Position numbers and translations under genes: made by a program. Source: Eledone cirrhosa (Eukaryota). Taken from it: a DNA stretch of 64,000 bases. The notes under the pieces are model-generated. The model did no database searches. It saw nothing but the letters and a program-made list of their open reading frames with translations, and was not told the origin of the DNA. Of the stretch, positions 6,335 through 56,850 are shown one piece after another; within the stretch, counting starts at the first letter, position 1; each line of letters opens with the position of its first letter. Location of the stretch: NCBI GenBank assembly GCA_964016885.1, contig OZ024740.1:105896001-105960000 (forward strand), in the 5' to 3' direction.

Positions 6335-6381
<47 letters not shown>
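6335..6381 (+). repeat. (AAT)n microsatellite; tail/target of Tx1-A copy 1
   Basis: Direct read. Confidence 0.97.
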
Positions 6382-6383
<2 letters not shown>

Positions 6384-9300
6384 TTTCTTTATTAACCACA
6401 AGGGTTTATATAAAGTAGACATTAAGGACAGTGCAGGACAATGCAGGACGGTACAAATGGGCATTTCTGCGTGTAAAAAACAAAAACAGAGGATGTAACA
6501 AAAAATAACAATGAAAAATTCCCCAATAGGGTGCAGACTTCGGAGGGACATTTGTGGAGAAAGCCCAGTAAAAAGCCACAATGACCCTGACCACCAAGGC
6601 AAGTGCCCTCTCCCAGTTTTCCACCTTTAATTTACAGATATATACTCAGAGTAGGCCCATTCACTCGGGCCATTCTTGCTTCTCTCACCCATCTTTCAAC
6701 AAAATGCTGGGAAGAGAGCACTTCCCTCTCTACTCTGATTTTCCTTTTCAAATGAAATTTGAAAAAGTCAATCAGAGCATCACCGAAGAGGTAAGTGCTC
6801 GTCTTCAGCCCTTTCAAACGTGTCCACCATACTATCTCTTTCACCATGGCCACCAGGCAGATAAAAACTGCCTGCCCATCCCGGCTAAAGGAGGAGGGCG
6901 GGGCAATCCTCACGATGGACTCAGATGATAGCCAGATCCGTCCTAAACGCGACAGCAGGTGTTCGACATAAACCCACAAGGCAGCAATTTTCGGACACTG
7001 GACGAGTGCGTGCAGGACGGTTTCGTCGCCCTGCGCGCATCTCGGACATGCCCGGCTGACGGCACCTCCATGCCTGTAGAGTTTATCCCGAACTGGCAAG
7101 GCTCCTCGGTAGCACTGCCAGGCCAGAGATTTCTGGAAGTTGTCCATAGGCCCTGGCCCGAAAGTTCTTCCGAAGAGATTGGCTAGTTGATTTTCGTCGA
7201 CGCCTAGAGTTTCCCCAAGTACGTCGTCGCTCTTCCCCTCCACTAATCCTCTATAGATCGCCGATGTGGAGTTTCCACCGATCACATTGCCCGATTGGTC
7301 GAGGGCTGTGAGCGCCTGAAGACATTCCAGTCTCCAGGCGCTCCCTCTCGGTCTTCGCTTGACCCAGGTCTGCAGCTCCGTCAAGGAAACGAGCTGGGGA
7401 AAAACGCGTCTAGCAAACGACGACTACACCTGATCACCGTCGAGGAAGAGGTGGAGATGTCGTAGCCTGAGCGCGTGCCTGCGCATCATCAGCCACGGCA
7501 TGCCCAGCCCTCCACGTAGCGGGTGTTGACAACAGATGGACCGCCTGACCATCGGAGCACGTCCCTTCCACAAAAAGCGAAAGAGCAAACGCTCCAGCGC
7601 AGTCAGGCGAGGCTTAGGACAAGGTACGACGGTTAGGCGGTAGCAGATGACAGACGCGATGTACGCGTTAGCCACCTCCGCTCGACCTTTCAGGGATAGC
7701 TTCCTCTCCGCCCATTTCTGGGTGAGAGAAGCCACCCTGCTCGTCACCTCGTCCCAGTTTTTGTCCGTCTGGAGGTCCGGACCGAACCAGACCCCTAGCA
7801 ATTTAACCGGTCCGTCCGTCCAGCGCCCGACGACGCTGTTGGACGGCATGGACCTGCCTCTCCAGGTGCCGAGCTGCAGGCCCACCGACTTTTCCTGGTT
7901 GATCATTGCTCCTGTCACCGCTTCGTATTCTCTTAGTGTAGTGCCGATCGCCTCGATGTGTTTGGCGTTCGACACCACTACGGTGACATCGTCCGCATAT
8001 GCTGACACGGATCTTCCGCATCCTAGTTCGCGCGGGATGCCCCTCAACGTCTCCAGTTTGTGCAGTAATGGCTCGAGAGTCAATACGTACAAGAAGGACG
8101 AGAGGGGACATCCTTGGCGGACCGAGCGCATGATGTTGAACGGTTCCGACAGGTGACCGTTCACTCTCACCACAGAGCAGATGTCGCTGTGCATGGCAGC
8201 GATCCAGCCTCTGAAGACGGGCCCAAAGCCAGCCGCCGTCAGGACAGCCGCTAGGTAACGATGGTCGACCCTATCGAAAGCTTTCGACTGATCTAAATTG
8301 ATCAAGGATCCACCCGTGCCAGGTTCCCTAGCTACCCTCTCTACGATGTATCGCATGAGGTGGAGGTTGTCGTGGATGGATCTGTCGGGAATGGCGCATG
8401 TCTGCGCCTCTCCCACCAGACCACCAACGACAAGCGCCAACCTCTTTGCTAGCACCTTGGCCAAAATCTTGAACTCTGTGTTTAGCAGATATATGGGCCG
8501 GAAATTATCTATGTTATCCCCCTTGTTCGGATCCTTTCTCAGCAGTGCCACCGCTCCTCGGCTCACAGAACTGGGAATTCTCCCGTTCTGTTGCCAGTTG
8601 CAGTAGACGTCCGCCAAGAGGCCTCTGAACAAGTCTGGCATCTGTACGTAAAGTTCATAGGGCAGACCATCCAAACCAGGCGATTTACCCCTTGTGCAGC
8701 CAGTCATTGCCTCCCTTACTTCAGCGGCTGTTATTGGCTTTTCGCAACACTTCGCCTCAGTGGCCGAGAGCTGCGGCAGTCCGTCGAGGTAGACACTAAA
8801 GTCCATCCCTCGACCTGGCCGACCGCTGCCCTCGAACAGCTGAGCGAAGTGTTGCTGAAAAGCTTCACACATTTGCCCGGGATCAAGTAGCATGCGCCCG
8901 TCGTGGTCCACCAAAGACCAGATCGTGGCTTTGTTGAACGGGCCCATTGAACGGCTTTCGTCCCCTCGTGTCAGAGAGCACGCACCCTTGCTCTGACAAC
9001 GCAGCCTTCGTGCTTTGCATTGAAGAATTGGTCAAGGGCCAATTTCGCCGCAAGCATGTCGGTCGCAATGCCTTTGCTAAGCGCCTCGTCTAATTTTCTA
9101 ACTAGTTCTCCCTCTGCTCTATTTTCCTCTATTGCTAAACCTAATGGATTCTATTCTAATCGCTCTTTTCAGAGCAAACCACCACTTGTTGTTGACGATG
9201 GCCCCCGTCAACGCCCGCTTAACTAGTTCGCTAATCCGGTCTCTGTAGGCCTTGCGCGCTGGTAAGGACGCGTTTAGCTTCCAGTAGCCGGGTCCTCGTC

Positions 9301-12300
9301 TATGAAGCCTATCTAAGTCAAACACACAGATCACGAATTTGTGGTCCGTGTAGCTGACTATCTTGAATTGTAGACAGCCTATGCTAGATCTATCTATTTC
9401 CCTACAAAATACTCTATCTAGATATGATCTGGATGACCCGATGCGATTTGTCCAAGTCCACATTGGCACATTCGGGAAATCCAATCTGTACCTGTCAGAC
9501 AGTTCAAAACGCCTGAGCAGGTTGGTGAGGCTCTTGCACCCTCCATCCCTATCCGCTATTTCCCACACAGTCCCAGCGTGCATTTAAGATCCCGTTCCAG
9601 TCGCCCACTAACACTAAAGAGCGGGACGTTCCAAGAAAGGTCTCCAGACGCCGGAAGAAATCAGGCCGCCCTGCTCCTGTCGGGGCATAGACGGCCACTA
9701 ACCTGAAAGCTTGCCCGTCTCCGCTGGTCACGTCCAGCACCACCAACTTACCCACTGGGTCCAGGAAGATGGCCCGTATGGCGAGATCCAAACCTCTCCG
9801 AAAAAGCACAGCAACTCCTCCCCCCGATCCAGGACGGCTGGGAGATGCGTACACATTGTAGCCGCCGAAGATCGGTGCGAAGGCCCGTGCTTCGGAGATT
9901 CTGGTCTCGCTGATGGCCACTACATCTATGTTTAGTGACCTGAGGTCGTTGAGCAGGTGACCCTGCTCCCATGACGACCCCCAAGCCACGCGCATTTATG
10001 CTGCCTATTCTGAGTGAGGTCATGTTTAAAATAGAGTGGAAAAGATGGGAAAGACCACTGCCGTACTTTTCGTATAGGAGGGATGGTTTTTACATCCCTT
10101 TTCACTTGATCGTCTGGTGAAGAGACCGTTGAATCGCCCCTTCGGCTGGTCATCTGCTCTTCTATGAGTATGTCCGAATATACTCTTCGGTTGATAGTTC
10201 CTCCTAGGTCTCTGAAATCACCAACTGCGTTGGGGAATTTCGTTTTGATGTTTGTGTATTGTTTCTGTGCTATTTTTAGCAGTCTTATGTTAGTTGGCGT
10301 TTTGATTGGTGCTGGTATTATGTAGTCGTGTTGTGAAATGTATGTGTGTTCAATTATGTAAGTCATTAGTTTCTTGTTGTGTGTATTTATTGCCGTGCAT
10401 TTGTTTTTCTGGGGGTGGGGTGTGGTTCTGCTATTTTCTTGTCGTTTTTGCTGGGTGTGTGTGTTTTGTTGTTGTGTTTGCGATGTTGGTGCTTGTGGTA
10501 GTGGTGTTGAAGGTGTTGTTGGCGGTGGGGTTGTCGCCGGTGGTGATGGTGGTGCTAGTGTGGGTGGTGATGGTGTTGGTGGTGTTGCTGCTGTGAGTCT
10601 CTTTGCAGTAGACTTTACCCTTTTTTCATTTCTTTCCTCCCTTTTCAAAGGCGACGATGCGCTGCTTCTGCGTTTGTGCCTTCTTACGACCTTTTGCAAT
10701 CCCTCTCCCACCTCACACTCCATGTCTGATTCTGTGAGATCGGGGAGGGGTACCAGCTCCACTCTTTCACTTGTTGTTGTTGGTGATGTTTGCACTGGAG
10801 TCTTTGTTGCAGCTGCATTTGGTATTGCTGTTGTTGTTGTTAATACTTCCACTGCTGCTGCTGTTTTTGATTTCCGTGGAGTGCTTATGGGTGCCACGGA
10901 CCTATCGTTCCTGGTTGCCGCTTGTCCTGTTGCTGGTAGCCGTGGAGCCGGTTTCGGAAAGAGGGGGGTTTTCTCCTTTCTCAGGGTCTTCTCGTTGCAG
11001 AAGGCCCTGAGGTGATTCTTCGATCCACAGCGAAAGCATTTCGGGCGTTTGCCCTCAACACTTATGGGCAGTTGAGTGCCGTTGTCGAAGTCTATCACAT
11101 CCGGGATAGCTTCGATGCACTCCTGGTTGGTTTGGATTAACATCTCAATGGAGGTGCCGACCCACTCTTCTCTTACTTTTTTCTGTACTTGCAGTACAGT
11201 TGTTTTGTCCTCGATTCCGACGAGGACAGACGCGGCCAGCCAAGAAGGGGCCATTCCGGGGGGGGGGGGACGTGGGTCAGTTTGACCCTCACAATTTTTT
11301 GCCCGCAGTAGGAGGGCACCAACACCATTTCCTCGCTCCTTTGGGTCACTACGGATTGAGCTTTTGCCTCCTGGGGTGTGGCAAAAAGTACGTCTACGGT
11401 GGCATATTTCTTGCCTCGGGTGATGTGCGTTTTCCGCTGCCACACAGACCCCAAGGCTTTTTGTATTTGAGCCTCTGTGGCTCTTTCCACCCTACGGGAT
11501 TTTGTACTTACTGTACGGTACGTGACCGTACAGTGCTGTTGGGTTTCGAAAAGTTTTTCCGCTGCCTTGCAGATTGCTCGATGTCCAGTTTTTGTCACCA
11601 TCTTCTTCGCTTCCTCTAATTCCTCATTTGTTATGAGGATTGTTTCCAGATTGGTTTTCTTTGCTGCTGTTGTTGTTGTTATTGTCGTCGTCAGAGCTGC
11701 TGTTACTTTTGTTGTTGCTACTGGTACTACGACTACTGCAGCCGCCGCTGTTGCTGTGGTTGTTGTTGTTGTTGCTGCTGCTAATGCTATTGTTGTTTAT
11801 GCTGCTGCTGATGCTGTTGCGGCTGCTACTGTTGTTTTCATTGTCACTGTTGCTGTTGTTATTACGGCTGCTACTGCTATTATTCCTGACGTCAGACGAA
11901 TGAAATGGGTTTTCGTATTTCCCGCACACGTGTTTCGTCGTTGCCGTCGTCGTCGTGGAGAAATCTTGCACGCTTTGCACGAGACTTTTCTTTTCTGTCG
12001 TCGCTTGCGAAAGAGAAGGGAGGGAGAGAGACACATTTAAAGAAGGGAGGGAGAGAGACAATCTTCTCTCTGCTGTAGTGACGATTGAGGAAGAAGAAGA
12101 CGGAATGAGTGGGAGTGACCTATGAAAATTCTTTTTCGTAGCCATGTTGTTTTTTTTTTGTTTAAAATAAATATTGGGCACAAAACCCCAATAAGCAGTT
12201 ATTTAACCCCGAAGGGCCAAATAACGGGCAGAAAGACCCCTCTCACGAGAAGGAGGGTGTTTTTGTCTACAAGTTGATTAAAGTTTTAAACAATTTACAA

Positions 12301-12363
12301 TTGTTATAGCGTTCAAAATTTACAATACCTTACAGAGCCGAGCCTCCGTCAACCATAGCATTC
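6382..12363 (-). mobile_element. Full-length Tx1/L1-clade LINE (family A, copy 1), frameshifted
   Basis: ORF1 pieces 11173-11601 and 9932-11443 with CFRCGSKNHLRAFC knuckle; APE from 10023 (SINARGL, SET, GDWN, YLDR, TDH); RT 7424-8947 (YADD); C-terminal CPRC..ETVLH..C; (AAT)n on both flanks. Confidence 0.93.
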
Positions 12364-12418
<55 letters not shown>

Positions 12419-12441
12419 GTAATAATAATAATAATAATAAT
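12364..12441 (+). repeat. (AAT)n microsatellite between Tx1-A and Dong-B 5' ends
   Basis: Direct read. Confidence 0.97.
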
Positions 12442-15400
12442 GTTTGTTTGTTTATTTATGTTCGTCTACAGTGTGATAAGGCCACACAAAAGTCACATGG
12501 GGTGACGAAACTACCGGAGACGATGAATTCACCGGTGGTTATGTAACCATACATTCGCCAATCCTGGATAAGAGTGTTTAAATGTCGAACCTAAACAGTT
12601 CGAATAACGGTGAAATGGAGACTAGAATGTCATGTGAAAGACTCTCACCCAACAGGTGCTCCCTGGCTCAGCCGCAGGGACCTGGCTGTCAACCAAATAC
12701 TGCTGGTGTCGGAGGAAGAAGAAGAAGAAGAAAAGGGACCAGAACCAACCTGACGAAAGAAATGAATAGAACTGTTATGCAATGTTACCTGAAGAGTAAC
12801 CCCAAAGGAGAAAGGCTATAGGAAAAGGATGCATAACATCTGGAACGAGATTGGTCTATTTAAATTAGATGAACAAAAATTGGCCGGGCAGGCTCGGGTA
12901 ATAAGAACTAATCGGTGGATAAGCGAGCTGGAACTGGAGGAACTGAGCAGAGAGATTAGCTTGGAGATGGAGAGTGGAGTATAACAGGCAAACGAGCCAG
13001 TGGGAAATGAAGGTGAAGAGATCGAGAGAACGGAGGAACCACCCGAAGCAGACAATGATCTGAATGCTGAGATAAATAGTACTTGGAAGAGAGATACGGC
13101 CACTGAGGAGATGAATGCTGACGGGCTAGAACAAGATTTGGTTGATATCCTAAACTTAGTGGTAGATGAATTGAACAATGATAGTGGGAAACCTATGAAC
13201 CTAAGATTTGTAGACAGGAAAAAGTTAAAAGTATCAACAGCTAAGGTAAACAAAGTCATCCCATACCTTGAGGCGAGGAGCCTTCACCAGTGCAACAATA
13301 TCCTCAAAGCAACAGCAAATACGGTGAGGAAACTACTTGGTATAAAAACGAGAGGAAACAACAGACAAGAAAGAGCAGAGCCTTGCTGGAAGAAACGACT
13401 GAGTGGTCAAATCAGGGAAGTGAGAAATGACAGTGGAAAGCTTGAGTCCCTACTGAATGGGACACTAAAAAACATATACACTACAAATAGACGGGAAATA
13501 AAGTACAAAACTAGGAGGAAAAAGCTAAATATTATCATAGAGGAACTGAAGCAACGCATTGTAGCAAAGAGTGCAAAAATCAGGCGATACGAGAACAGAG
13601 TCAATTAGTATAGACAGAACCGCATGTTCGACAACAACCAGAGGATGTTGTTTGGAAAGCTTGAAGGGAAAGAAAGAGGCAACGACTTGATCCCTGAGGC
13701 GGAACAAACTAAAACATTCTGGAGAGGAATATGGGAGCAGGATGTTAAACATAATGACTAGGCAGTGTGGATTGAGACAGTACAGAAGGAGATCAGTGAA
13801 CAGGCACACCAACAAACTGATTTGAGTATCACAGTTGAAACTCTTAAGGGGCAGGCCAAAAAACTAACCAAATGGAAATCACCAGGCCCAGATGGTGTGC
13901 AGGGGTATTGGATTAAAAATATAACATCCCTCCACCCGAAACTGACAACCATGTTCAATGACTGCTTGATGTCAGGTGAGGTACCAGAGTGGTTGACAAA
14001 AGGTACCACAGTTCTGATAATGAAAGACCGAATCAAGGGTAATGATGTTACCAACTATAGACCTATCACATGTCTGTCCGTAATGTGGAAACTGTTGACG
14101 AGCATTGTGTCTGAGGAAATCTACCATCACCTCCACACAAACAACTTGTTACCGGACGAACAGAAAGGACGCCGAAAGAAGTCACGTGGTACAAAGGACC
14201 AGTTACTTATTGATAAGATGGTAATGGGGAATTGCAGGAGGAGACACACTGATCTTGCCATGGGATGGATAGACTACAGAAAGGCATTTGACATGGTGCC
14301 TCATTCTTGGATCACCAAAAGCCTGGAGATCTTCAAGGTGGCAGATAACATCAGACAGTTGTTGGGCAAGAGTATGAGGTCCTGGGAAACAGAGTTGACA
14401 TCAACTGGAGAATCCTTGGGAAGCGTGAAGATCAAGAGAGATATCTTCCAGGGAGATAGCCTGTCCCCTCTGTTGTTTGTCCTTGCCCTGATGCCCCTGA
14501 CCAGTGTACTGCGAAAAGTGAGAGCAGGATACAGGTTGGGAAAGGGAGCCCTTACCATCAATCACCTCCACTTCATGGACGATCTTAAGCTCTTCGGGAA
14601 GAGTGAGAAGGTGTTGGATGTGCTTGTTGACACTGTCCGTATTTTCAGCAATGATATATGTATGCATTTTGGTATTAGTAACTGTGGAGTCCTTGTGATG
14701 AAGAGGGTAAATTGAGCAGAAGTAACTGAATCCAGGTACCACAGGTGGGATGATAAAGAAAATTGACATTGAAGAAGGATATAAGTATTTGGGCGTTCTG
14801 GAGGCTGATGCCATCAAGAACAAAAAAATGAAGGATTTGTTAAGAACTGAATATATTCGGAGAGTAAGGAGCGTATAAAATCACATCTGAACAGTAGGAA
14901 TGCCATAAGTGCAGTAAATACCCGAGCTGTGTCTATTATTAGGTACAATGCGGGAATTCTGAGATGGAATGTTGCTGAACAAAAAGAATTGGATAGGAAG
15001 ACTAGGAAGCTATTGACTATCTACAACATGTTCTACAAGAGGAGTGATGTCGATAGACTCTACTTAAGGAGATCTGAGGGTGGAAGAGGTTTTATCAGCA
15101 TAGAGGACTGTGTTCAGATGGAGAAAAACAACCTACACAAATACGTGACTGATAGTAAGGAGCCAATGCTCAGAACTGTACTGAAGGAGGGGACAATAGG
15201 CCAGGGGATTTCCAAGGAGGAAATAACATCAAGGAGAAAGAGCAGCTTTCAGGAAAAATCCCTTCATAGTACCTTCTTTGAGAGAACTGAATTTAGAGAT
15301 CCACAGACATGGAACTGGTTGAAAAGGGGAGACCTTAAAAAGGCTACAGAAGGAATGTTAATGGCTGCGCAGGAGCAGGCCCTCAAAACGAAGTGGTTGA

Positions 15401-16109
15401 AACACCACATTTACAAGGAGGAGGCTAGCCCACTGTGCAGGATCTGTGGAGAGAGAGAGGAGACTGTGGCTCACATTGTATCCGAGTGTAAACACCTAGC
15501 CCAGACTCATTATAAGGGCTGGAAACATGATGTGATGGGCAGGGTGATCCACTGGCACCTATGCAAAGTAAACAATTTACCACATTCTGAGAAGTGGTAT
15601 GAGCATAAGCAAGAGGCGGTGATAGAAAACGATCAGGTGAAGGTGCTGTGGGATTTTAGGATACAGACGGACAAGAAACTGGAACACAATAGACCTGACC
15701 TGGTGGTTTTGGACAAAGAAAAAAGATCGTGCCTGATTGTGGATGTGGCCTGCCCATTCGACACGAGAGTGCAAGAGAAGGAGAGGGAGAAAATTAACCG
15801 ATACCAGGACTTAAAGTGGGAGGTAAAAAGGATTTGGAACTGCCATGAATTCAAAGTGATCCCGATTGTCATAAGCGCACTAGGGACTATCTCAAAAAGT
15901 TTCCAGGGATGGTTAAAGAAAATCGGCCCCTTCACGCTTTTTGGAACGCTTCAAAAGGCATGCTTGCTGGGAACAGCAAGAACCCTCCGATACGTCCTGA
16001 ATATCTGAGGCTGCAGGTAGTGGCTTGATATTCATTTCAACAAACTTTCCAGTTAACCAACATCAATGACTGAGACTCAAAGAGTAATAACAATAATAAT
16101 AATAATAAT
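12442..16109 (+). mobile_element. Apparently full-length R4/Dong-type LINE (RT + RLE), family B, disrupted
   Basis: ORFs 12582-16008: WKSPGPDG, YRPITCL, IFQGDSLSP, FMDDLK; CRICG..ETVAHIVSEC; RPD..D..K...Y RLE; ends in (TAA)n at 16085-16109. Confidence 0.88.
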
Positions 16110-16177
16110 GATTTCTTTATTGGCCACAAGGGCTCACATCAAGGAAAACATCACAGACGGAACAGGACGGTACGATG
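16110..16177 (-). mobile_element. 68-bp 3' stub of Tx1 family B inside an (AAT)n tract
   Basis: Reverse complement matches ~47631-47700; AAT repeats on both sides. Confidence 0.85.
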
Positions 16178-17129
16178 TAATAATAATGAGGACGATTTTT
16201 TTATGTCTTCCTTACGTTTATTGAGTAGTGACGCGTGTTTGGCTATTAAGGATGAAGCTTGGGTCTGAGGGGGCTCTTACCTTTTCTGTGGTGTGCTTAC
16301 TTTGTAAACTATATATATTCTTAAAGGGTTTTTTTTTACTAGAAAAAAAGTGATTAAGGATTGTGGCTAGTGTGTGAAATGAATATGAATAAATAGATGA
16401 ATGAATACATGAAATAGTTGCTACACTAACTATATGGGCTAACTTATACACCGATACCCCCCCCCCCCCCGACACACACACTCATATACAGAGTATACGT
16501 AGCTACAGACACCCATTCACACGTATATATAAACACATGCCTGTACCCCTGCATATACACACACTCAGATATATACGTGCTCATAGGTCCAGACGTTCAT
16601 ATAACTATATCCATCTGCATGCTTGTAGCCATATATATACAGGCGTAAGTATATTTGTATGTACTAGTAATATGGCGAGATAAATATTCTAGAGGAATAT
16701 ATAATTGTAAAATAGAAAATTATTTGGATATGTATCAGAAGGTTGAAAATGTAATAGTAATAGGAAATACATGTAATAGTAATAATAACGATGATAAAAT
16801 TGGTGATACAAAGGAAAGTAATGATATTAATTGTAGTAATAATAGGATGCTTGTGGTGTATGTGGGTGGCTGGTGTGCACGGGGTATGTTCATCTGGTGA
16901 CTACATGGTGATATGTTTAATAATGAGGGACATGATAAAGAATATAATATTAACAAGAATAACAATGGTAATGAATGTAACAGTGGTAACGAGGGCGCTG
17001 ATAGAGTTAATGAGACATGATAATAATTTTGGTAGTTAATAGGATGTGAACGTGCCTATTGTTGTCTGTGTTCAGATGGTTAGGTTTTGGTCCCTCCGTG
17101 GTTTATGTCCGAATACCATGGCACAGAAT

Positions 17130-17655: not shown

Positions 17656-17857
17656 GGACATGGATGAACGAAGTGAATTTTAACTTGTTGATTTATACTG
17701 CTTGTTTATAAATATACTGCGGAGTAAACAGACCCACCTGCGCTCTTCGTCGAGTGCTCTGCCATGCATACTGAAGTATCGGTATTTAAGCAACACAATT
17801 TACTTACTGGTAATTGGGTAATACACAATATCAACCTTATCTTATTAAAGCAAGACT

Positions 17858-18146: not shown

Positions 18147-18148
<2 letters not shown>
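17858..18148 (+). mobile_element. Tx1 family A 3' stub
   Basis: Matches ~53229-53513 and the reverse complement of 6382-6670; followed by (ATT)n at 18149-18202. Confidence 0.9.
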
Positions 18149-18202
<54 letters not shown>

Positions 18203-43399: not shown

Positions 43400-46300
43400 T
43401 TAATGCGTGGCAAACGGTCTGCCACAAAAAACAAATAACAAAAAAACCCTTAGATTCACCCTCCAAAAGCGAAGGCATACAAAGAGGGGTAAAGGCAGCA
43501 AGGAAACTTGCAGCAACACCACCACCATCACCACCACAAGCACCACTGACAACAACAACGACACCACCACTAGCATCACCAAAAACACCAACAACGCAAA
43601 CACAACAAGACACACACACCAAACAGCAACAAGAAGAAAACAGCAACAAAATCACCCCTCCCCCCCAAAAGTACACAGCCATAAACATGGCAAAAAAAGA
43701 ACTCATACAATATATAATGCAGCACACAGACATCACAGAAAAAAACTACTATACCCCACCAACACCAAGAATTCTCCCGACAAACATAAGCATCATCGAA
43801 ATCTCAATAGAACAGTACAAACCTTTAAAACAAAAATTCACCAACGCAGTTGGAGACTTCACAGGGTCGGTTACCAAGAGGATATACACTGACATCCTCT
43901 TGGAAACACCCATGACCAGCGAAAGGGATGGTTCTACTGTTCCTTCACCACACCAACAAGGTAAGTGACTCTTTCTCACTTGCCCCGTTTCTCATCCAAC
44001 ATGGCCGTACTCAGAATAGGTAGTATAAATGCACGTGGCCTGGGGTCATCTTGGAAGCAGGGTCACCTGCTCAACGACCTCAGGTCACTAAACATAGATG
44101 TGGTGGCCATCAGTGAAACCAGAATCTCCGAAGCACAAGCCTTTGCACCGATCTTCGGCGGCTACGATGTATACGCTTCTCCCAGCCGTCCAGGATCGGG
44201 GGGAGGGGTCAACGTTCTTTTTCGGAGAGGCTTGATCTCGCCATCTTCCTAGACCCAGAAGGTAAGTCGGTGGGGATGGACGTGACCTGCAGCGAAGGCA
44301 ATGCTTTCAGGCTAGTAGCCGTCTACGCCCCAACGGGGGCAGGACGGCCAGATTTCTTCAGACGTCTAGAGACCTTTCTTGGAACGTCCCGCTCTTTAGT
44401 GTTAGTGGGCGACTGGAACGGTATATTGGATGCACGCTGGGATCGTGTGTGGCTAGTGGATAGGGGAGGAGGGTGCAAGAGCCTCACCAACCTGCTCAGA
44501 GGTTTTGAATTGTCTGACAGGCATCGACTGGATCACCCGAATGTGCCAATGTGGACATGGACAAACCGCATCGGGTCATCCAGATCGTATCTCGATAGGG
44601 TATTCTGCAGAGAACTAGATAAGGCTAGTATAAGTTGTCCACAATTTAAAATAGTCGACTACACAGACCACAAATTTGTGATCTGTGAGATCGACATAGA
44701 CAGACTTCATAGACAAGGGCCCGGTTACTGGAAGCTGAACGCGTCTTTTCCAGCGCGCAAAGGCTACAGAGACCGTATTAGCGTATTAGTTAAGCGGGCA
44801 TTGACGGGAGCGATCGTCAACAACAGGTGGTGATTCGCCCTGAAAAGGGCAATTAAAGTAGAGTCGATTAGGTTTAGCAAAGGAGTAGTGATAGAGGAAA
44901 ATAGAGTAGAGGGAGAGCTAGTCAGAAAGCTAGTAGAGGCGTTTAGGACAGGCATCGCAACTGACGTACTTGCGGCGAGATTGGCACTCGACCAATTCTT
45001 CAACGCAAAACACGAAGGCTGCGTTGTCAGAGCTACAGTGCGTGCTCTGAAATACGAGGGGACAAAAGCCGTCCAATGGGCCCGGGTGGCAGAGGCGCGA
45101 TGTGGCAACAAATCCACAATTCGGTCTTTGTCTGACCAAAACGGGTGCGTGATGCTCGAACCCGAGCGGATGTGTGAAGCTTTTCAGCAGCACTTTGCTG
45201 AACTGTTCGGGAGCGGCGGTGGCCCGGATAGGGGCATGGACTTCAGTGCATACCTCGACGGACTGCCTCGGCTCTCGACGACCGCAGCACAGTGTTGCGA
45301 AAAGCCAATAACAGCCGGTGAAATACGGGAAGCGATGGCTAACTGCAAAAGGGGGAAATCGCCAGGTTTGGATGGTCTGCTCTACGAGCTTTATGCATTT
45401 ATGCCAGACTTTTTCAGTGACATCTTGGCAGACGTCTACTGCAACTGGCAGCAGAACGGGAGCATTCCCTGTTTTGTGAGTCGGGGAGCAGTGGCGCTGC
45501 TGAGAAAAGACCCGAACAAGGGGGATGTTATCGATAATTTCAGGTCCATAACCCTGCTAAACGCGGAGTTCAAGATTTTGGCAAAGATGTTAGCAACGAG
45601 GTTGGCGCTTGTCGTCAAGGGTCTGGTGGGAGAGGCGCAGACATGCGCCATTCCGGACAGATCCATACACGACAACCTCCACCTCATGCAATACATCATA
45701 GAGAGGGTGGTTAAGGAACCCGGCAAGGGTGGGGCCCTGATCAACTTGGATCAATCCAAAGCATTCGATAGGGTCGACCATCGGTATCTGGCGGCGGTCC
45801 TCGAGGCAGCCGGTTTCGGGCCCGTTTTCAGGCGTTGGATCGCAGCAATGTACAGCGACATTGGCTCAGTTGTGAGAGTGAACGGTCACCTGTCACAGCC
45901 GTTCAGCATCATGCGCTCAGTCCGCCAGGGTTGTTCCCCCTCGTCCCTCTTGTACGTATTGGCTCTCGAGCCGTTACTGCACAAACTGGGGGCGATGAGG
46001 GGCGTCCCACGCGAACTAGGATGCGGGAAATCCGAGTCGGCTTACGCTAACGACGTCACCGTGGTGGTGTCGAGCACCAGACACGTCCAGATGCTCGGCA
46101 CCGTTCTGAAGGAATACGAAGCGGTGACAGGAGCAAAGATAAACCAGGAAAAGTCGGTGGGCTTGCAGCTAGGCACCTGGAGAGGCAAGTTCATGTCGTC
46201 CGACAGCGTCGTGGGGATTTGGACGGACGGACCGGTTAAATTGTTCGGGGTCTGGTTCGGACCGGACCTCCAGATGGAGAAAAACTGGAACGTGGTGACG

Positions 46301-47698
46301 AGCAGAGTGGCCTCCCTCACCCAGAAATGGGCTGAGAGGAAGCTGTCCCTGAAAGGCCGGGCGGAAGTGGCGAATGCGTACATCGCATCCGTCATCTGAT
46401 ACCGCCTCACCGTCGTCCCTTGCTCCAACCCAACTCGCACCAAAATGGAGCGCCTCCTCTTCCGCTTTTTGTGGAAGGGACGCGCTCCCATGGTCAGACG
46501 ATCCATCTGCTGTCAACACCCGTTGCGTGGAGGACTGGGCATGCCATGGCTGATGATACGCAAACATGCGCTGAGGCTGCGACATCTCTGGTGCTTCCTT
46601 GATGGCGAACGGGTGTGGTCGCCGTTCGCCAGGCACATTGCCACAGCTCGTCTCCTTGACGGAGCTGCAGTCCTGGGTCAGAAAAAGACCGAGGGATAGC
46701 GCTTGGAAACTGGAATGTCTCCAGGCGCTCACTGCCCTCTCCCCGTTGGGCACCAGTATCGGTGGAACATCCACCTCGGCGTTCTATAGAGGACTAGTGG
46801 AGGGGAAGAGCGACGACATTCTAGGAAAGTCCTGGGCGTCGAAGAAGATCAGCTGTTTGCTCTCTTCTGAGAACTTTCAGCCCGGGGTCTATGGATAACT
46901 TCCAAAAATCCCTGGCCTGGCAGTGCTACCGGGGAGCGCTGCCGGTTCGAGATAAGCTCTACAGGCACGGAAGTGTCGTCAGCCGAGTCTGTCCGAGATG
47001 CGCGCATAGCGACGAAACCGCTGTGCACGCACTCGTTCAGTGCCCGAGCATTGCTGACTTGTAGAGCTATGTCGAACAGTTGCTGTCGCGTGTGGGACTG
47101 ATTCGGTTGTCGACTGAGTCCATTGTGCAGATGGTCTCGCCGTCTTCCTTCGAGGAGGAAGGGCAGGTGGTTTTCATCTGCCTGGTGGCCATGGCGAAAG
47201 AGATTGTGTGGTGGACAAGGTTAAAAGGATTAAAGATAAACACTTTCCTCTTCGGCGAATCCCTAATTAACTTTTTCAAGTTTCACTTGAAGAGGAAAAT
47301 CAGGGTGGAGAGGCAAGTGTTGCTTTCTAGCAAGTTTGTTGAAAGGTGGGTGAATGTAGCGAGAATGGCCCGAGTGAACGGGCCCACTCTGAATATACGT
47401 CTGTAGTTTGAGAGATGGAATCATTGAGAGAGGGCGCTTGCCCTGGTAGTCAGGGTGGCCGTGGTCTTTTGTGTGGTTTTCGCCACGAGTAACCCTCGGA
47501 GGTTTCCCTCCTATAGGGGAATTTTTCATTGTTTCAATTTTCATTTTATTGTTTATATATATATACGTTTTGTGTTTTTTTTTTTCTTTTCTTATATAAA
47601 TAATAAAAAATATTTACACGCACAAAACCCACATCGTACCGTCCTGTTCCGTCTGTGATGTTTTTTCTTGATGTCAGCCCTTGTGAACAATAAAGAAA

Positions 47699-47700
<2 letters not shown>
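43400..47700 (+). mobile_element. Tx1/L1-clade LINE family B, 5'-truncated within ORF1
   Basis: ORF1 end 43687-43968; APE 44000-44833; RT 44888-46399; C-terminus to 47406; (ATT)n tail. Confidence 0.93.

Positions 47701-47757
<57 letters not shown>
47701..47757 (+). repeat. (ATT)n microsatellite between two Tx1 copies
   Basis: Direct read. Confidence 0.97.
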
Positions 47758-50700
47758 GGTGACCTACGTAGTAAATCGTATCATCGTGAGCTCCGCAAAG
47801 GTTTGTTGTTTCCGTTTGTTAAAAATTGCCATTTATTGAAAATTTTATAGTTAACTGTATATAAGCGCACATACATTGTTTTCCGAAAAGGACACCCAAA
47901 AAGATTGGGGCCTTGTGCCCAAAATTTAAACATTTATAATTATAAAAAAAAAATTTCTTTGAAAAAAAAACATGGAAATCTCACAGCCACACGAAGCTGA
48001 CAGCCTTCCTCATAAACTAACACCTCACACCGACACCACCATTGTAAATATTACTACGTTTGCCAACACAAAAAATTTAAGCAGTAGCAATATTTAAATT
48101 TGTCTCAGGCAGACATTCATTTCCCGCCATTACCAATGACTGCAGGTGTTAAAGCCGCCACCACCACCACCACGACAACAGAAACAAAATAAAAAAATAA
48201 ATTAACTCGTGATGTCGAAATGAATTCAACCAAAATGGACTCTTCCACACCGAACACCACTGACGTCACCACGACCACAACTGAAACTAAAATTAATAAT
48301 AACAAAAATAACAATAACAACAACAGCAACAATGACATTAAAAAAACCACCCTGAGTTTTGCCAGAGTAGCAAAACAGTGCGAAGCATTTCAGGTAACTC
48401 AGGAGGAATTAGAAAATGCCCCCCAAATGGTAAAGAAAGATGGGTACAGGGTCAGCCTCAGCCCCCACCTAATAAAATGGAGCATCGGCGCCTATGCACC
48501 GTGTCGTATCGAACAATTAATGTAAAATCGCGCCGAGTGGAACGGGCATCCGAGTCCCAAATCCAAAAAGCTTTGGGACATGTGTGGGCAAGAAAAACCC
48601 ACATCAGACGTGGGCAGAAGTATGGAACCGTGGACGTGTTCTTTGAAACACCAGAGGAGGCTAGAGAATACTCTATGGCCCCATTAAGAAGTGACGACTT
48701 CACACTCGTCCCAAGCTATTGTGGCCAGAGACATCGAAATTCCCTGGCTAATAGCGGCCGTCCTCGCCGGCATCGAAGCCAACACCAAGATAATAGCAAT
48801 AGCAAAAGAAAAGCAGGAGAACTGGTCCGGATCTGGGATGGAGCTCCTGATCCAAGCGGACCAAAAATGCATTGAGGAGATCCCAGAGGTAATAGACCTC
48901 ACTGACGGCAGCCACCTCACCGTAATTGTCGAGGGAAGAAGGCCTAGGTGTGTCGTTTGTCGTGAAGGAACCCACCTAAGGGCTTTCTGCCCTCAGGCTA
49001 AAAGGTTGAAGCCACCTCTCCTACCCACCCCAGTGACTCAACCATCAACACCACCAGTAGCAGAGATGGCAGCAACAACTGTAGCAGCAACAATAGAAGC
49101 AACTATAACAGCAACAACCCCAGCAACAGTAGCAAAATCAACACCACCACCACCCAACGCTTCAGAACTAGCACCAGCGCCTACACCATCCACTACGCCA
49201 CAACGAAAACTAACGGCTGGGGAGGATTTTCCATTCCCCGGCCTATCACAACTGGAGACAGATTGTGACGACGAGGAGTGGGAAACGGTATCAGGAAAAA
49301 AGAAGAAAAGAAACCAAAAAAGAAAAAATTCTCTTCCTTCCCACTCCAAAAACAAAATACAGAGGGAAACAAATAAATTAACAAAGAAAAAAGTTAGGAC
49401 AGATATGCCACCATCCACACCAGCATCACCATCCCCATCACCCCAAACACCAACACCACCACCATCATTAACCCCAACACTACCATCACCTACACCACAA
49501 AAGTCACCAAAATGCGAAACAGAAACAAACCCACATCAAACGCAAACAAAACAAGACAACCAAAACGATACACACTACACAGCATTAAATTTGAACAACA
49601 ACCAATTATTAGACTACATCCAACACAACACCAGCATCACAGAAAAAGACTACACAACAACCCCAAAATTCACACCACTTCCACACATACAAATCACTCG
49701 CATCACACAGAAAACGTACATGACACTAAAACAAAAATTCCCCAAAGACATCGGAGACTTCGGACAAGCACTCTCCAGGAGGATTTATAAGGACATCCTT
49801 CCTGAGGAGGCCACAAGCAGTGAAAATGATGGAAAAACCGTCCTTCCTCTACGAGAAGTAAGGTAAGTGGTCTTTCCCATCTTTTCCACTCCATTTCAAC
49901 ATGACCTCACTCAGAATAGGCAGCATAAATGCGCGTGGCTTGGGGTCGTCGTGGAAGCAGGGCCACCTGCTCAACGACCTCAGGTCACTAAACATAGATG
50001 TAGTGGCCATCAGCGAGACCAGAATCTCCGAAGCACGGGCCTTCCCACCGATCTTCGGCGGCTACGATGTGTACGCATCTCCCACCCGTCCGGGATCGGG
50101 GGTGGAGTTGCTGTGCTTTTTCGTAGATGTTTGGATCTTGCCATACGGGCCATCTTCCTGGACCCAGAAGGTAAGTTGGTGGTGCTGGACGTGACCAGCC
50201 GAGACGGGAAAGCTTTCAGGTTAGTGACCGTCTATGCCCCTACAGGAACAGGGCGGCCTGATTTCTTCCGGCGTCTGGAGACCTTTCTTGGAACGTCCCG
50301 CTCTTTAGTGTTAGTGGGCGACTGGAACGGGATGCACGCTAGGATTGTGTGAGATTAGTGGATAGGGAGGAGGGTGTAAGAGTCTCACCAACCTGCGCAG
50401 GCGTTTCGAACTGTCTGACAGGTACTGATTGGATTTCCCGAATGTACCAATGTGGACTTGGACAAATCGCATAGGGACATCCAGATCATATCTAGATAGA
50501 GTATTTTGTAGGGAAATAGATAGGTCTAGCTTAGGCTGTCCACAATTCAAGATAGTCAGCTACACGGACCACAAATTCGTGATCTGTGTGCTTGACTTAG
50601 ATAGGCTTCATAGACGAGGACCCGGCTACTGGAAGCTAAACGCGTCCTTACCAGCGCGCAAGGCCTACAGAGACCGGATTAGCGAACTAGTTAAGCGGAC

Positions 50701-53513
50701 GTTGACGGGGGCCATCGTCAACAACAAGTGGTGGTTTGCTCTGAAAAGAGCTATTAGAATAGAGTCCATTAGGTTTAGTAAGGCTTTAGCAATAGAGAAA
50801 AATAGAGCAGAGAGAGAATTAGTTAGAAAATTAGACGAGGCGCTTTGCAAAGGCATCGCGACCGACGTAATTGCGGCGAAATTGGCCCTTGACCAATTCT
50901 TCAATGCAAAGCACGAAGGCTGCGTTGTCAGAGCTAGGGTGGGTGCTCTCAGACACGAGAGGACGAAAGCCGTTCAATGGGCCCGAGTGGCGGAGGCGTG
51001 TCGTGGCAACAAAGCCACGATCCGGTATTTGGTGGACCACGACGGGCGCATGCTACTCGATCCCTGGCAAATGTGTGAAACTTTTCAGCGATACTTCGCT
51101 CAACTGTTCGAGGGCAGCGGCGGGCCGGATCGAGGGATGGACTTTAGTGTCTACCTCGACCGAATGCCGCGGCTCTCGGCCACTGAGGCGGAGTGTTGCG
51201 AAAAGCCGATGACAGCCGCTGAAGGACGGGAGGCAATGACTGGCTGCACAAGGGGTAAATCGCCTGGTTTGGATGGTCTGCCCTATGAACTTTACGTACA
51301 AATGCCAGACTTTTTCGGAGGCCTCTTGGCGGACGTCTACTGCAACTGGCAACAGAACGGGAGAATTCCCAAGCCTATGAGCCGAGGAGCGGTGGCGCTG
51401 CTGAGAAAGGATCCGAACAAGGGGGATAACATAGATAATTTTAGGCCCATAACTCTGCTAAACACAGAGTTCAAGATTTTGGCCAAGGTGCAAACAAAGA
51501 GGTTGGCGCTTGTCGTTGGTGGTCTGGTGGGAGAGGCGCAGACATGCGCCATTCCCGACAGATCCATCCACGACAACCTCCACCTCATGCGATACATAGT
51601 AGAGAGGGTAGCTAGGGAACCTGGCACGGGTGGGTTTTTGATAAATTTAGATCAGTCGAAAGCCTTCGAGAGGGTCGACCATCGTTACCTAGCGGCAGTC
51701 CTGAGGGCGGCTGGCTTTGGGCCCGTCTTCAGAGGCTGGATAGCTGCCATGCACAGCGACATCTGCTCTGTAGTGAGAGTGAACGGTCACCTTTCGGAAC
51801 CGTTCAACATCATGCGCTCGGTCCGCCAAGCATGTCCCCTCTCGTCCCTATTGTACGTATTGACTCTCGAGCCATTACTGCACAAACTGGAGACGTTTTG
51901 GGGGGTCCTGCGCTAACTAGGATGCGGAGTATCCGTGTCAGCATATGCGGACGATGTCACCGTAGTGGTGTCGAACGCCAAACACATCGAGGCGATCGGC
52001 ACTAAACTAAGAGAATACGAAGCGGTGACAGGAGCAATGATCAACCAGGAAAAGTCAGTGGGCCTGGAGCTCGTCACCTGGAGAGGCAGGTCCATGCCGT
52101 CCAACAGCGTCGTCGGACGCTGGACGGACGGACCGGTTAAAATGCTAGGGGACTGGTTCGGTCCGGACCTCCAGACGGACAAAACTGGGACCAGGTGACG
52201 AGCAGGGTGGGTTTCTCTCACCCAGAAATGGGCCGAGAGGAAGCTATCCCTGAAAGGTCGAGCGGAGGTGGCTAACGCGTACATCGCGTCCGTCATCTAC
52301 TACCACCTGACCGTCGTACCTTGTCCTAAGCCGCGCCTGACTGCGCTGGAGCGTTTGCTCTTTCGCTTTTTGGTGGAAGGGACGCGCTCCGATGGTCAGG
52401 CAGTCCATCTGCTGTCAACACCCGCTACGTGGAGGGCTGGGCATGCCGTGGCTGATGATGCGCAGACACGCGCTCAGGGTACGACATCTCCACCTCTTCC
52501 TCGACGGTGATCAGGTGTGGTCGCCATTTGCTAGACACGTCTTTTCCCAGCTGGTCTCCTTGACGGAGCTGCAGTCCTGGGTCAAGCGAAGAGCGAGAGG
52601 GAGCGCTTGGAGACTGGAATGTCTTCAGGCGCTCACAGCCCTCGACCAATCGGGCAATGTGATCGGTGGAAACTCCACCTTGGCGTTCTATAGAGGATTA
52701 GTGGAGGGGAAGATCGACGACGTACTTGGAGAAACTCTAGGCGTCGACGAAAATCAACTAGCCAATCTCTTCGGATGGACTTTCTGGCCGGGGCCTATGG
52801 ACAACTTCCAGAAATCCCTGGCCTGGCTGTGCTACCGGGGAGCTTTGCCAGTTCGGGCATGTCTGAGATGCGCGCAGGGCGACGAAACCGTCCTGCACGC
52901 ACTCGTCCAGTGTCCGAGCATTGCTGACTTGTGGGTTTATGTCGAACACCTGCTGTCACGTGTAGGACGGATCCAGCTATCAGCTGAGTCCATCGTGAGG
53001 ATTGCTCCGCCCTCTTCCTTTAGCCGGGAAGGGCCGGCAGTTTTTATCTATTTGGTGGCCATGTCGAAAGAGATAGTATGGTGGACACGTTTGAAAGGGC
53101 TGAAGACGAGCACTTACCTCTTCGGTGATGCCCTGATTAACTTTTTAAAATTTCATTTGAAAAGGAAAATTAGGGTAGAGAGGGAAGTGCTCTCTTCCCA
53201 GCATTTTGTTGAAAGATGGGTGAGAGAAGCCCGAGTGAATGGGCCTACTCTGAGTATGTGTCTGTAAATTAAAGGTGGAAAACTGGGAGAGGGCACTTGC
53301 CCTGGTGGTCAGGGTCACTGTGGTCTTTTAATGGGCTTTCTCCACAAATATCCCTCGGATGTCTCCCCCCTAATAGGGAATTTTTCTTTGTTATTTTATT
53401 ACATCCTCTGTTTTTTTTTTACACGCAGAAATGCCCATTTGTACAGTCCTGTATTGTCCTGTACTGTCCTTAATGTCTACTTTATGTAAACCCTTGTGGT
53501 TAATAAAGAAAAC
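47758..53513 (+). mobile_element. Full-length Tx1/L1-clade LINE (family A ORF2 with a different ORF1), frameshifted
   Basis: ORF1 pieces 48220-49866 with CVVCREGTHLRAFC; APE from 49901; RT 50429-52198; (ATT)n on both flanks. Confidence 0.93.
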
Positions 53514-53528
53514 ATTATTATTATTATT

Positions 53529-56500
53529 TGCATTTATCTTGCTTTATGTTTATACGAGTTATCACCAAGTCACAACCAGTGACCTCAAGAGACAACAAGG
53601 TCCGCCATGTTCAAGAAAGAACACACATATTCACACATGCATCCTTAGTGTTTAGACTTGTGATGTACTTATATTGACAGGATCTTCCTTAGTATATGGG
53701 CAGTTCCCATTAGTACTATCTTTTGTATTTCTCCTATACGCGGGTTTCCTGGGATTTGCGATAAGTAGTCGTTAGACCCCTTAGGTATCATTCCCAGAGC
53801 GCCTACAACCACTGGTATTGTTTTAGTTCTCAATTTCCGCATTTTTCCAATTTCTATCTCCAGGTCCTTATACTTGCTCAATTTTTCAAATGTTTTTATA
53901 GATACATTCTTGTCTATTGGAACAGACATATCAATTAGCAGGCATACCCTCCTTTGAAAGTCCTTCAATATTATATCAGGTCTATTTGCATCTATTTTTC
54001 GGTCTGTTTGGATTCTAAAGTTCCACAAGATTGAGATGTGATCTTTTTCAAGTATGGGAGGTGGTTGATGCTCCCACCAATTCTTTTGATGGGGCAGGTC
54101 AAAATGCTTACACATTATCCAATGTATGTATTGTGCAGCTCTGTCATGCCTGTTTAGGTATTCGGTTGGAGCTATAGGACTGCACATTGAAATTATATGG
54201 TCAATGGTCTCTGGTTGTTTTTTGCATACACGGCATAGTGGGCTGCACCCATTTTTTATTATGTTGGCTTGGTAATTTTTTGTTGGCAGACACTGATCTT
54301 GTGCGGATATAATCAGTCCTTCAGTCTCCGATTTCAGTCCAGAGGATGCCAACCACTGATGGGTTAAAGTTTTGTCAACATCAGGATTGTTAGCTCGCTC
54401 TGGGTATTTTCCATACAGAGGCTTTTCTTGCCATTTCTTAGCCAGTTTCTGTAGCAGTTCTTTCTTTGCAGTTACTTTTACCTGCTTTGCTTTTTCTGTG
54501 TTTTCCATTTCAGCAGTAAATGGGACTTCTGAAATTTGTAGTCCATTACTGTATCTTTGTGCATCTTTTGTAATGGAATATGATCTTTTGGTGCTTTCGT
54601 GTTTCAAAACGAGTTTGATCATCCAATCATGTGATTCCCTTAGATATGTGGATAATCCAATTGTTGCAGTTTTCAACGCAATGTCTAACTGGATTAACCC
54701 ACGTCCTCCTTCTTTCCTAGGGAGATATATTCTATCTATGTCTGCCTTAGGGTGATGCATTCTGTGCATGGTTAAGAATTTTCGGATTTTTGTATCGAGC
54801 CTACGGATCTCTGTGCTTGACCAGTTGATGACATTGTAACTGTAGGTTACTACTGGTATGGCAAGCGTGTTTATGGCATCGATCCTATTCCTTGCATTCA
54901 ATTCCGTTCTTAAGATTGCTCTGACTCTGCGGTAACATTCCTTCCTTATCCTTTCCCTCATTGTCGAGTGCTTGATTCCGTCTCCTTCACAAACACCTAG
55001 ATATTTGTAAGTTTGTTCTTGATCAAGCTCTCTTATCACGTTCCCCCGATCAAGATTAATGTCTGAACTCTTCAGCAGCTTTCCTCTGGTGAACGTTGCT
55101 TTGGCGCATTTATCCAGTCCAAACTCCATTTTAATGTCATCACTGAACTGCTTCACAGTGGATAATAGCCCTTGCAATTGTTCATCATTTTTTGCAAATA
55201 GTTTCAGGTCATCCATGTAGAACAGGTGATTAATGGTTTTGTCATAGACTCTATATCCATGTTTTGTTTCATTGAGCATTTTACTTAATGGTATAAGTGC
55301 GATGCAGAATAAAAACGGTGATAAAGAGTCACCCTGAAAAATTCCACAATTAATGTTAACTTCTCCAGCTTCCAGTGATTTTGTTTCACTATTCAAAAGG
55401 AGTGTCGTTCTCCATGTCCTCATACTGAATGACAAAAACCTCCTGACAACGGGGGATATTTTGAAAATCTCTAAACATTTTTCAATCCAACTGTGTGGCA
55501 AACTATCAAATGCTTTTTTATAATCTATCCAAGCAATCGATAGATTTTTGTGTCTATTATGACAATCTTCCAGTATCATTTTGTTAACCAGAAGCTGATC
55601 CTTACAGCCATATGAGCCTCGTTTACACCCTTTCTGCTCAATGGGAAATAGGTCATTTGTTATCAGGTGGTCATATGTGTATTCAGTTAGGACTGATGTT
55701 AAAATTTTATACATTGTGGTCAAGCAGGTTATCGGTCTGTAATTTTTGGGATTGTTTGTCTCATCATTCTTCGGTAGCAGGAATGTAATGCCGTTAACTA
55801 GCCATGATGGTATCTTTTCTGGCTCCTTAACTATTTCATTGTAAAGTTGGGCTAACAGCTCATGAGACTCTGTGAAGGCATTTATCCAAAAGTTTTGTAT
55901 TTTGTCTTTTCCTGGGGATTTCCATTTGCTGGTTTTTCTTAGAGCCAAGCGCAGCTGTTCAACTGTTATATTTTCCCATGTTTGTTCTTCAAGGTGAGCT
56001 GTTTCTTTCATTTGTCTGTCTATCCATGGGGCATGTATGTTATGAACTTTTTCTTCGGCCCAGATCTTTTCCCAGAATTCTTGCACTTCCTCCTTGGGTG
56101 GTATTGATTTAGCAGTTATTGTTGACTTACCAATTTTTCTGTAGAAGTTTCTTTGGTTGTTTTTGAACATATTATTGTCCTTATAGAATCTAGATCGTTT
56201 TTCAAAGCGCCTTATACGAGCAGCTTTGGCCGACACTTTTTGCTTGATTGTTTCTATCAGCATGTCTATGTCACATGTTGATCTTATACTGTACTTTTTT
56301 TTTAATTTTCTAAGTTTAGTTTGTTTAACATGTTCACCTACTTTATAGTTTGTTAAAATTTCTATGTCAGATCGGAGAAGGTTTATTTGGCGATTGATGT
56401 TATCTTGCCAAGTAGATTTCTTGTGTGAATTCCTTTGTTTTTTCATCTTCACTCCACATAAGTGAGTGGTGACTTTAGCCGATGCATAATAGAGATGATT

Positions 56501-56850
56501 TAAGTCAGTAATGTTTATTTTGTTTGTGATGATAATGTTTTTGAGAATTATGTTAGTCTTGTGTATTATCTTTTGGTTCTGTTTGGAGTTCTGGATCTTA
56601 GGGAGGGTGTCTCGTTCCCCCATGTCAGATTCTTTCATTTTCATCCATTCGATCATAATTTCATCCTTCAAGTTGGCAAGTTCATTCTCATTCATTTCTT
56701 TATCATTTACGATCTCATTATTTTCATTTGGAGTTTCATCCTGAGCATGCACTCCCTCCACTTTTTCGCTCCTTTCTTTAATTTGTTCTGTTGCCAGTGA
56801 TTCCGCCCCAACTCTGGGATAATATATAACCAGCAATTTCTCTGTCTGTC
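53529..56850 (-). mobile_element. R4/Dong-type LINE family C, long young copy
   Basis: 3'UTR matches the copies at 18203 and 21708; (AAT)n tail at 53514-53528. Confidence 0.92.

Follow-up and report, generated by a model that had tools for sequence, protein, structure and literature searches.

Tx1 and Dong retrotransposons occupy AAT/ATT tracts of the Eledone cirrhosa genome in opposite orientation and likely form growing chains

In the genome of Eledone cirrhosa (assembly GCA_964016885.1, 3.0 Gb) two distant groups of long interspersed nuclear elements (LINEs), Tx1 and Dong, lie in opposite orientation in AAT/ATT tracts. The arrangement is seen in a stretch of 64 kb (contig OZ024740.1, positions 105,896,001-105,960,000; hereafter the window, with positions counted from its first base), and it holds genome-wide. 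We are confident, if short of certain, that it reflects nicking of opposite strands by the two groups, Tx1 with an apurinic/apyrimidinic endonuclease (APE) and Dong with a restriction-like endonuclease (RLE), and that the chains of elements grow by insertions which lengthen the tract.

The strand of the tract and the orientation of neighbours were scored in a census of 320 loci and the window. For each of three 3' ends and three 5' ends 30 loci were sampled, together with 40 larger stretches around matches or beside the window and with 100 stretches of ten kb. The latter, placed at round coordinates chosen in advance, make up a random sample of 1 Mb. Duplicates were removed by flank sequence, of which a few may remain. 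Copies with a visible 3' end were kept, and a copy was called truncated when it began beyond library position 1100 (Dong) or 60 (Tx1). The 3' ends of one of the two Dong families, Dong-B, entered the census only as neighbours of other elements. A tract was counted when at least three units lay within 12 nt of the end, which is the case for 0.14% of random positions.

On the sense strand of the element, 107 of the 116 Tx1 3' ends carry an ATT tract and 113 of the 117 Dong 3' ends an AAT tract. The expected tract is also present at the 5' end of all full-length Tx1 copies (57/57) and of most truncated copies (26/34 for Tx1, 51/61 for Dong). A tract of the opposite strand alone was found at none of the census ends. 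Among neighbours joined by a tract, 164 of 169 pairs follow a simple rule: Tx1 and Dong are antiparallel (76/77; 39 tail-to-tail, 37 head-to-head), and members of the same clade are parallel (88/92). In the pre-chosen random stretches the rule holds for 10 of 10 pairs. A preliminary description, made from the window, had claimed strict antiparallel polarity of the two groups, and both outcomes that it named as fatal to this claim failed to appear: orientations are not random relative to the tract, and most copies do have a tract at the 5' flank, the truncated ones included. The placement of Tx1 and Dong on opposite strands is thus confirmed as a genome-wide feature. The same strand rule is seen on a second repeat, as (GAA)n occurs at some Dong 5' junctions, with as many as 69 units, and (TTC)n at some Tx1 ends (loci L154, L081, L033, L053 and L315).

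The layout of the window was obtained from self-comparison, open reading frames (ORFs) and junction read-outs. It holds three arrays with eleven LINE pieces, at whose internal junctions no host DNA is found. The participants belong to at least three subfamilies of Tx1 and two families of Dong, and the elements fill 30 kb of the 64 kb, compared with about 4-6% of the random sample. The arrays are composed as follows (RT, reverse transcriptase; UTR, untranslated region; SINE, short interspersed nuclear element).

5403-6334, plus strand: internal RT fragment of Tx1 subfamily B, without a 3' end of its own, adjoining the tail of the minus-strand Tx1 T2
6335-6379: (AAT)15 tract, the ATT tail of T2
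6380-12363, minus strand: T2, full-length Tx1 of subfamily A (ORF1, APE-RT-zinc finger ORF2) with stops and frameshifts, 96% identical to a copy with open ORF2
12364-12440: (AAT)18-AGT-(AAT)7 tract, Tx1/Dong head-to-head
12441-16084, plus strand: D1, Dong-B, its 5' UTR truncated by about 1 kb
16085-16109: AAT tract, Dong/Tx1 tail-to-tail
16110-16187, minus strand: T3, the 3'-most 69 bp of a Tx1 of subfamily B; its 5' junction carries (ATT)3
17848-18148, plus strand: T4, 5'-truncated Tx1 of subfamily A, 5' junction without tract
18149-18202: (ATT)18 tract, tail-to-tail
18203-20016, minus strand: D2, 5'-truncated Dong-C, 99% identical to an intact copy
20017-20028: (ATT)3 tract, Dong head-to-tail
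20029-21622, minus strand: D3, 5'-truncated Dong-B (93%)
21623-21706: (ATT)28 tract, Dong head-to-tail
21707-24415, minus strand: D4, 5'-truncated Dong-C (95%), its 5' junction on a SINE head and without tract
24416-24521, plus strand: 5' half of an ATTATT-targeting SINE
43400-47700, plus strand: T5, 5'-truncated Tx1 of subfamily B, about 80% identical to A, 5' junction without tract
47701-47757: (ATT)19 tract, Tx1 head-to-tail
47758-53513, plus strand: T6, full-length Tx1 variant G, interrupted, with ORF2 and 3' UTR as in A and a different 5' UTR and ORF1
53514-53528: (ATT)5 tract, tail-to-tail
53529-56820, minus strand: D5, 5'-truncated Dong-C whose RT-CCHC-RLE frame is open, with 100% (rounded) identity to a full-length copy, 5' junction without tract

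The sense-strand tails are (ATT)15, 6, 18, 19 and 5 for the five Tx1 copies with a 3' end, and (AAT)6, 18, 3, 28 and 5 for the five Dong copies, so that the earlier count of five out of five for either group holds. The tail-to-tail joints at 16085-16109, 18149-18202 and 53514-53528, the head-to-head joint at 12364-12440 and the same-clade head-to-tail joints at 20017, 21623 and 47701 were likewise found where they had been placed. The array limits needed correction in two points: array 1 begins at 5403, with the fragment that had been omitted, and the last Dong, and with it array 3, stops at 56820 and not at 56850. For the fragment at 5403-6334, twin priming was considered as origin and rejected because the fragment sits 3' of its possible partner.

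A Tx1 copy elsewhere in the genome (L151) has an open ORF2 frame of 1204 aa with APE, RT and zinc-binding domains (Pfam PF03372, PF00078 and PF13966, zf-RVT), and the APE catalytic motifs are present by reading. ORF1-like frames lie upstream of ORF2. The layout is that of the Tx1 clade, with an ORF1 and an ORF2 whose APE is N-terminal and whose zinc-binding domain, behind the RT, is C-terminal, and ATT at both ends agrees with the clade's target-sequence preference. The best informatively named homolog of ORF2 is the 'Transposon TX1 149 kDa protein' (E 2e-85), the nearest solved relative, from a different database, is human L1 ORF2 (E 3e-51), and a piece of ORF2 matches a protein annotated in Octopus sinensis. 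The elements therefore likely belong to the Tx1 clade of the L1 group, a label taken from domain layout and homologs rather than from a tree. Metagenome relatives of ORF2 at 80 loci are 22-38% identical and had no usable target tract. Variants A and G (6380-12363 and 47758-53513; L151 and L157) are about 95% alike in ORF2 and 3' UTR, and unalignable (about 50%) in 5' UTR and ORF1; this is a module swap, and each 5' end forms its own family. Older Tx1-like pieces of 67-78% identity also occur, one of which finishes near a TAG run (L188).

Each of the two Dong families has a single ORF, of 1216 aa in Dong-C (L153) and 1141 aa in Dong-B (L154), in which the RT is followed by CCHC and the nuclease motif RPD..D..K; an APE is absent. 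Their proteins share 37% of the amino acids, and identity to the Tx1 protein is 22% and confined to the RT. The nearest structures are R2 by both sequence and fold, with R2 proteins on Foldseek ranks 1-7. From domain layout, motifs and the (TAA)n target on the sense strand, rather than from a tree, the two families likely belong to the R4/Dong clade. The clade is marked by a Myb/SANT-like N-terminal domain free of zinc fingers. An alignment shows a conserved Trp motif and no CCHH at the N-terminus, and a confidently predicted three-helix unit lies at residues 58-108; neither Pfam nor a whole-chain fold search gave a Myb match for the Dong N-terminus. A single-sequence fold of the Dong-C N-terminus was of low confidence (pLDDT 55) and was not used. 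Rfam gave no ribozyme match in the Dong-C 5' UTR, where an HDV-like one is expected for the clade. Dong-C is very young, as 40 of 40 scored matches are identical to the 131-bp query. The first 40 nt or so of Dong-B and Dong-C are nearly alike despite the distance of the proteins, and further, more distant Dong-like families are present (L073, L165:6181-9326, L193 and L279:3041-4284). In public runs labelled as other organisms we noticed contigs about 97-99% identical to Tx1-G and Dong-C, which may come from a close relative, a mixed sample or transfer.

The preliminary description had further proposed that each insertion leaves a tract which recruits the next one, so that arrays grow. Recruitment is supported, since 83 of 145 queried ends (the loci of the window left out) adjoin another Tx1 or Dong via a tract, 82 of the 83 following the orientation rule, while Tx1 and Dong together cover only 4-6% of the random sample. 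Neighbours show mixed divergence (87-100%), which fits a stepwise build-up. In the random 1 Mb, tracts of at least seven units touch an element in 14 of 15 cases, compared with 5 of 44 for tracts of four to six units (Fisher p 1e-8; one tract inside an element was dropped from the count). Three split sites were read by hand. At L301, where the flank is duplicated, the two sides have (ATT)3 and (ATT)12; at L312 the host repeat counts four units in 8/8 empty copies (those passing a four-unit filter) and about 8 + 11 after insertion; and at L018 about 6 units have become 3 + 13. Growth of tracts on insertion, which rests on these sites and the correlation, is suggestive, and the growth of arrays is supported with that reservation on the growth step. 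To a large extent, long AAT tracts seem to owe their origin or their length to insertion and not to have been there beforehand.

The explanation that comes closest is that both families pick long AAT tracts which replication slippage has already made, so that few targets are hit repeatedly and no tract is synthesised. It departs from our interpretation on tract growth only. Other long trinucleotide tracts indeed exist without these elements (at least seven units: 26 per Mb for ATC, 17 for ACC), splitting one long tract already doubles the targets, and full-length Tx1 always has at least three ATT units upstream. However, among the 15 long AAT tracts of the 1 Mb sample only one lacks an element, the three split sites have more units after insertion than before, and a SINE described below has at most three units in its 3' flank in 74 of 78 copies, yet mostly more where it is joined to Tx1 or Dong. 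Slippage also leaves unexplained that the 5' tracts of full-length Tx1 are longer than those of truncated Tx1 (median 8 versus 5, p 6e-5). We consider this explanation unlikely.

A second question is whether the tract is a target or just a tail. A 5'-truncated copy cannot inherit a 5' repeat from its RNA, yet most such copies have one, so the tract is a target. In three Tx1 copies the last base is followed directly by A(TTC)n, so at most one or two AUU units come with the Tx1 RNA and no long tail is imposed. Template jumping is a known behaviour of R2, and without any targeting, RNA-templated tails combined with 5' leader repeats or template jumps could give chains as concatemers or recombination products; jumping in particular could yield same-clade head-to-tail arrays. 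The junction of full-length Tx1 to the tract is free of a spacer in 65 of 68 cases, which fits an RNA leader, as described for R2 (PMC3774820). Such an origin is largely refuted and, in our judgement, highly improbable: the tracts of truncated copies, which could carry no leader, remain unexplained, jumping or tail recombination predicts parallel Tx1-Dong neighbours where 76 of 77 are antiparallel, neighbours differ in divergence, and three Tx1 tails are TTC. It is hardly credible either that insertions are random and that tracts and the interior of other repeats are the only places where they persist or enter the assembly, for although the window is element-rich (30 of 64 kb versus 6% in the random set) and assemblies can mis-join repeats, selection cannot fix the tract strand per clade, the youngest Dong-C copies (30 matches identical to the query) all finish in AAT, and junctions differ locus by locus over many contigs.

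In target-primed reverse transcription (TPRT) the primer strand is complementary to the 3' end of the RNA. Under this model the Tx1 APE would nick and prime on the AAT strand and the Dong RLE on the ATT strand. The earlier claim that an APE and an RLE converged on one target stands, with the strands read from the polarity of the tracts; the assignment of a nicked strand to either enzyme would follow from TPRT. Each insertion would leave a tract on both sides, together longer than the original site, from which the chain could grow. In contrast to Tx1, a spacer-free junction is found in only 1 of 14 Dong cases, and 13 of the 14 Dong 5' junctions are variable, which would fit cleavage at the element edge. 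In R2 an RNA with target sequence upstream gives uniform junctions, whereas cleavage at the element edge, as reported for Dong, gives variable ones (PMC3774820). The RNA of full-length Tx1 may accordingly have a few AUU units upstream, with which it anneals at the 5' junction; such a leader would explain both the precise junctions and the longer 5' tracts, adding repeats with each full-length insertion. Dong would join by microhomology. The antiparallel rule itself would need no interaction between the families, because it follows from two inherited strand preferences.

Several observations weigh against this interpretation or narrow its basis. Most loci were chosen by similarity to the copies of the window, so the sample favours young families, and the older Tx1-like pieces in the random set mostly lack a long tract. 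The rule fails in five of the 169 pairs: two are joined by composite ATT/AAT tracts, one has a short host spacer, one is an inversion, and the fifth is the fragment of the window at 5403-6334, whose contact with T2 is antiparallel within one clade. Tractless 5' junctions occur in 8 of 34 truncated Tx1 and 10 of 61 truncated Dong copies, among them four listed for the window and, in addition, T5. A tract is missing from 5 of the 11 5' junctions of the window (5403, 17848, 43400, 24415 and 56820), every one of them the outer edge of an array. The ten Tx1 and Dong 3' ends of the window share only seven tracts, which makes the window by itself weaker evidence than five of five twice over sounds. 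The length asymmetry between 5' and 3' tracts of Dong is not significant (p 0.65 for all, 0.054 for the youngest copies), and the evidence for growth consists of three hand-read cases and a correlation. Among the joints listed from four of 12 public runs, none skips a whole element at 42600-57450 and no empty allele was seen, although these short-read contigs are swamped by paralogs and uninformative. The similarity between SINE and Tx1 3' ends is short (34 nt) and equalled at 0.7-3% of null sites.

This SINE, of about 195 bp, gives 136 hits per Mb in the random sample. Its copies in the window are listed here.

57087-57281, plus strand: complete copy, used as query, outside the arrays
24416-24521, 30023-30203, 35317-35504, 59615-59709 and 60683-60782: further copies

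Among 78 copies with a 3' end, a flanking duplication of at least 10 bp is found in 39 (shuffled pairs: mean 6.9, maximum 14) and of at least 12 bp in 33 (shuffled mean 2.3). The duplications have a median of 16 bp and start with ATTATT, and the apparent tail of the SINE is the start of the duplication. The last 34 nt score 24, 23 and 19 against Tx1 ends and 7-12 against Dong, CR1 and RTE; among 1327 null sites, 24-61% score as high as the Dong, CR1 or RTE matches. SINE and Tx1 have the CTTGT loop of a 3' hairpin in common, the stem of which differs between Tx1 subfamilies and stays paired. Loop-specific recognition of a 3' hairpin has been shown for L2 LINEs (PMC4176376). Contacts of the SINE are parallel to Tx1 in 9 of 10 cases and antiparallel to Dong in 2 of 2. 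From this similarity and these contacts the SINE is probably mobilised by Tx1. An unsampled LINE or an ATT-ending CR1-like family may be the partner instead, although 3' similarity does not favour CR1. The Tx1 machinery would then cut at the 5' edge of ATTATT and duplicate about 16 bp, in agreement with the shortness of 5' tracts at truncated Tx1 copies. Further insertions could use SINE and CR1 ends as seeds. ARAGORN and Rfam gave no tRNA match in the SINE head; stretches in it resemble A and B boxes, as judged by eye. The Dong-C 5' UTR (L153, library positions 807-860) contains about 55 bp from the 3' end of the SINE and then a short run of ATT.

A LINE which we take to be CR1-like, from its C-terminal motifs, also finishes in (ATT)n on its sense strand (L279:2352-2751, L194, L074, L145 and L178), and at L145 a full-length Tx1 follows its tail. 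Two other features were noticed in the window: an RT frame with an embedded PHD finger at 39517-42113 (plus strand), presumably RTE-like, is followed by a (TGA)6 run at 42601 and has no link to AAT tracts, and a PIF1-like helicase fragment at 60196-60660 (plus strand; E 5e-54) is probably of Helitron origin.

In insects, molluscs and cnidarians the target of Dong is TAA (PMC3812793, PMC7998251). The Bombyx element has TAA upstream on its sense strand too. Compared with the Dong elements of Bombyx mori, Anopheles, Biomphalaria and ostracods, here two families of 37% identity use one target, alternate with an APE element and occasionally carry GAA runs at the 5' junction. Tx1 families of microsatellites, Kibi, Koshi and the crocodilian ones, are known from (TC)n, (TTC)n, (TTCC)n and (TTTC)n (PMC4494074). 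By target, not by tree, the present elements resemble Kibi and Koshi in that three copies enter (TTC)n, but their main target is (ATT)n. The Bombyx Dong and the known Tx1 elements on TC and TTC make it probable that polarity is an inherited habit of each lineage, for which no co-adaptation is needed.

The use of one target by an APE and an RLE element and opposite orientation in one simple repeat both have published precedents. Keno and Utopia, one with an APE and the other with an RLE, arrived in parallel at a common target in U2 snRNA genes (PMC4640811); they share the 3' flank at one gene site, whereas Tx1 and Dong occupy opposite strands of a simple repeat that is scattered through the genome and is retained on both sides of an insertion. 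TRAS and SART lie in opposite orientation in Bombyx telomeric repeats, in arrays at chromosome ends (PMC10088271), and both belong to the R1 clade, whereas the arrays described here combine two distant groups with different endonucleases and are interstitial and genome-wide. The crocodilian SINEU was assigned to Tx1-Mar from a shared target, and it shows a 16-bp duplication and sequential tandem insertions (PMC4494074); its target is a Mariner element, in contrast to the ATTATT of the present SINE, which in addition has a Tx1-like 3' hairpin. Repeat surveys of octopus and other cephalopods name Dong-R4, two of them also L1-Tx1, and in the text available give no target or orientation (PMC13282606, PMC8967140, PMC9115989); both groups are counted among the recently active LINEs of Octopus vulgaris (PMC13282606). 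The single ingredients are thus known elsewhere and their combination seems not to have been described: a search of the literature, in part of its text, found no ATT-targeting Tx1 and no mixed Tx1/Dong arrays, with Repbase and the figure and supplements of PMC4494074 outside its scope, so that absence from print is not established.

More tentatively, and short of what we would defend as a conclusion, the elements may form a self-amplifying niche. An undescribed ATT-targeting Tx1 would mobilise a SINE that ranks among the most abundant and scatters short ATTATT seeds, Tx1 with its AUU leader and Dong would lengthen these seeds from opposite strands, and retrotransposition rather than slippage would make most long AAT tracts and element hotspots.

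The mechanism of microsatellite targeting has been called not well understood (review, PMC3812793). In the system described here an APE and an RLE endonuclease can be compared strand by strand, in a natural setting, on a single 3-bp repeat, and intact and very young copies exist for assays. The analysis proposes a partner LINE for a SINE of such abundance, and it offers a specific reason why element hotspots arise locally and AAT tracts become long, in a genome where the two groups together account for about 4-6% of the random sample. Because nearly all long AAT tracts touch a repeat, they are poor marker loci in this species.

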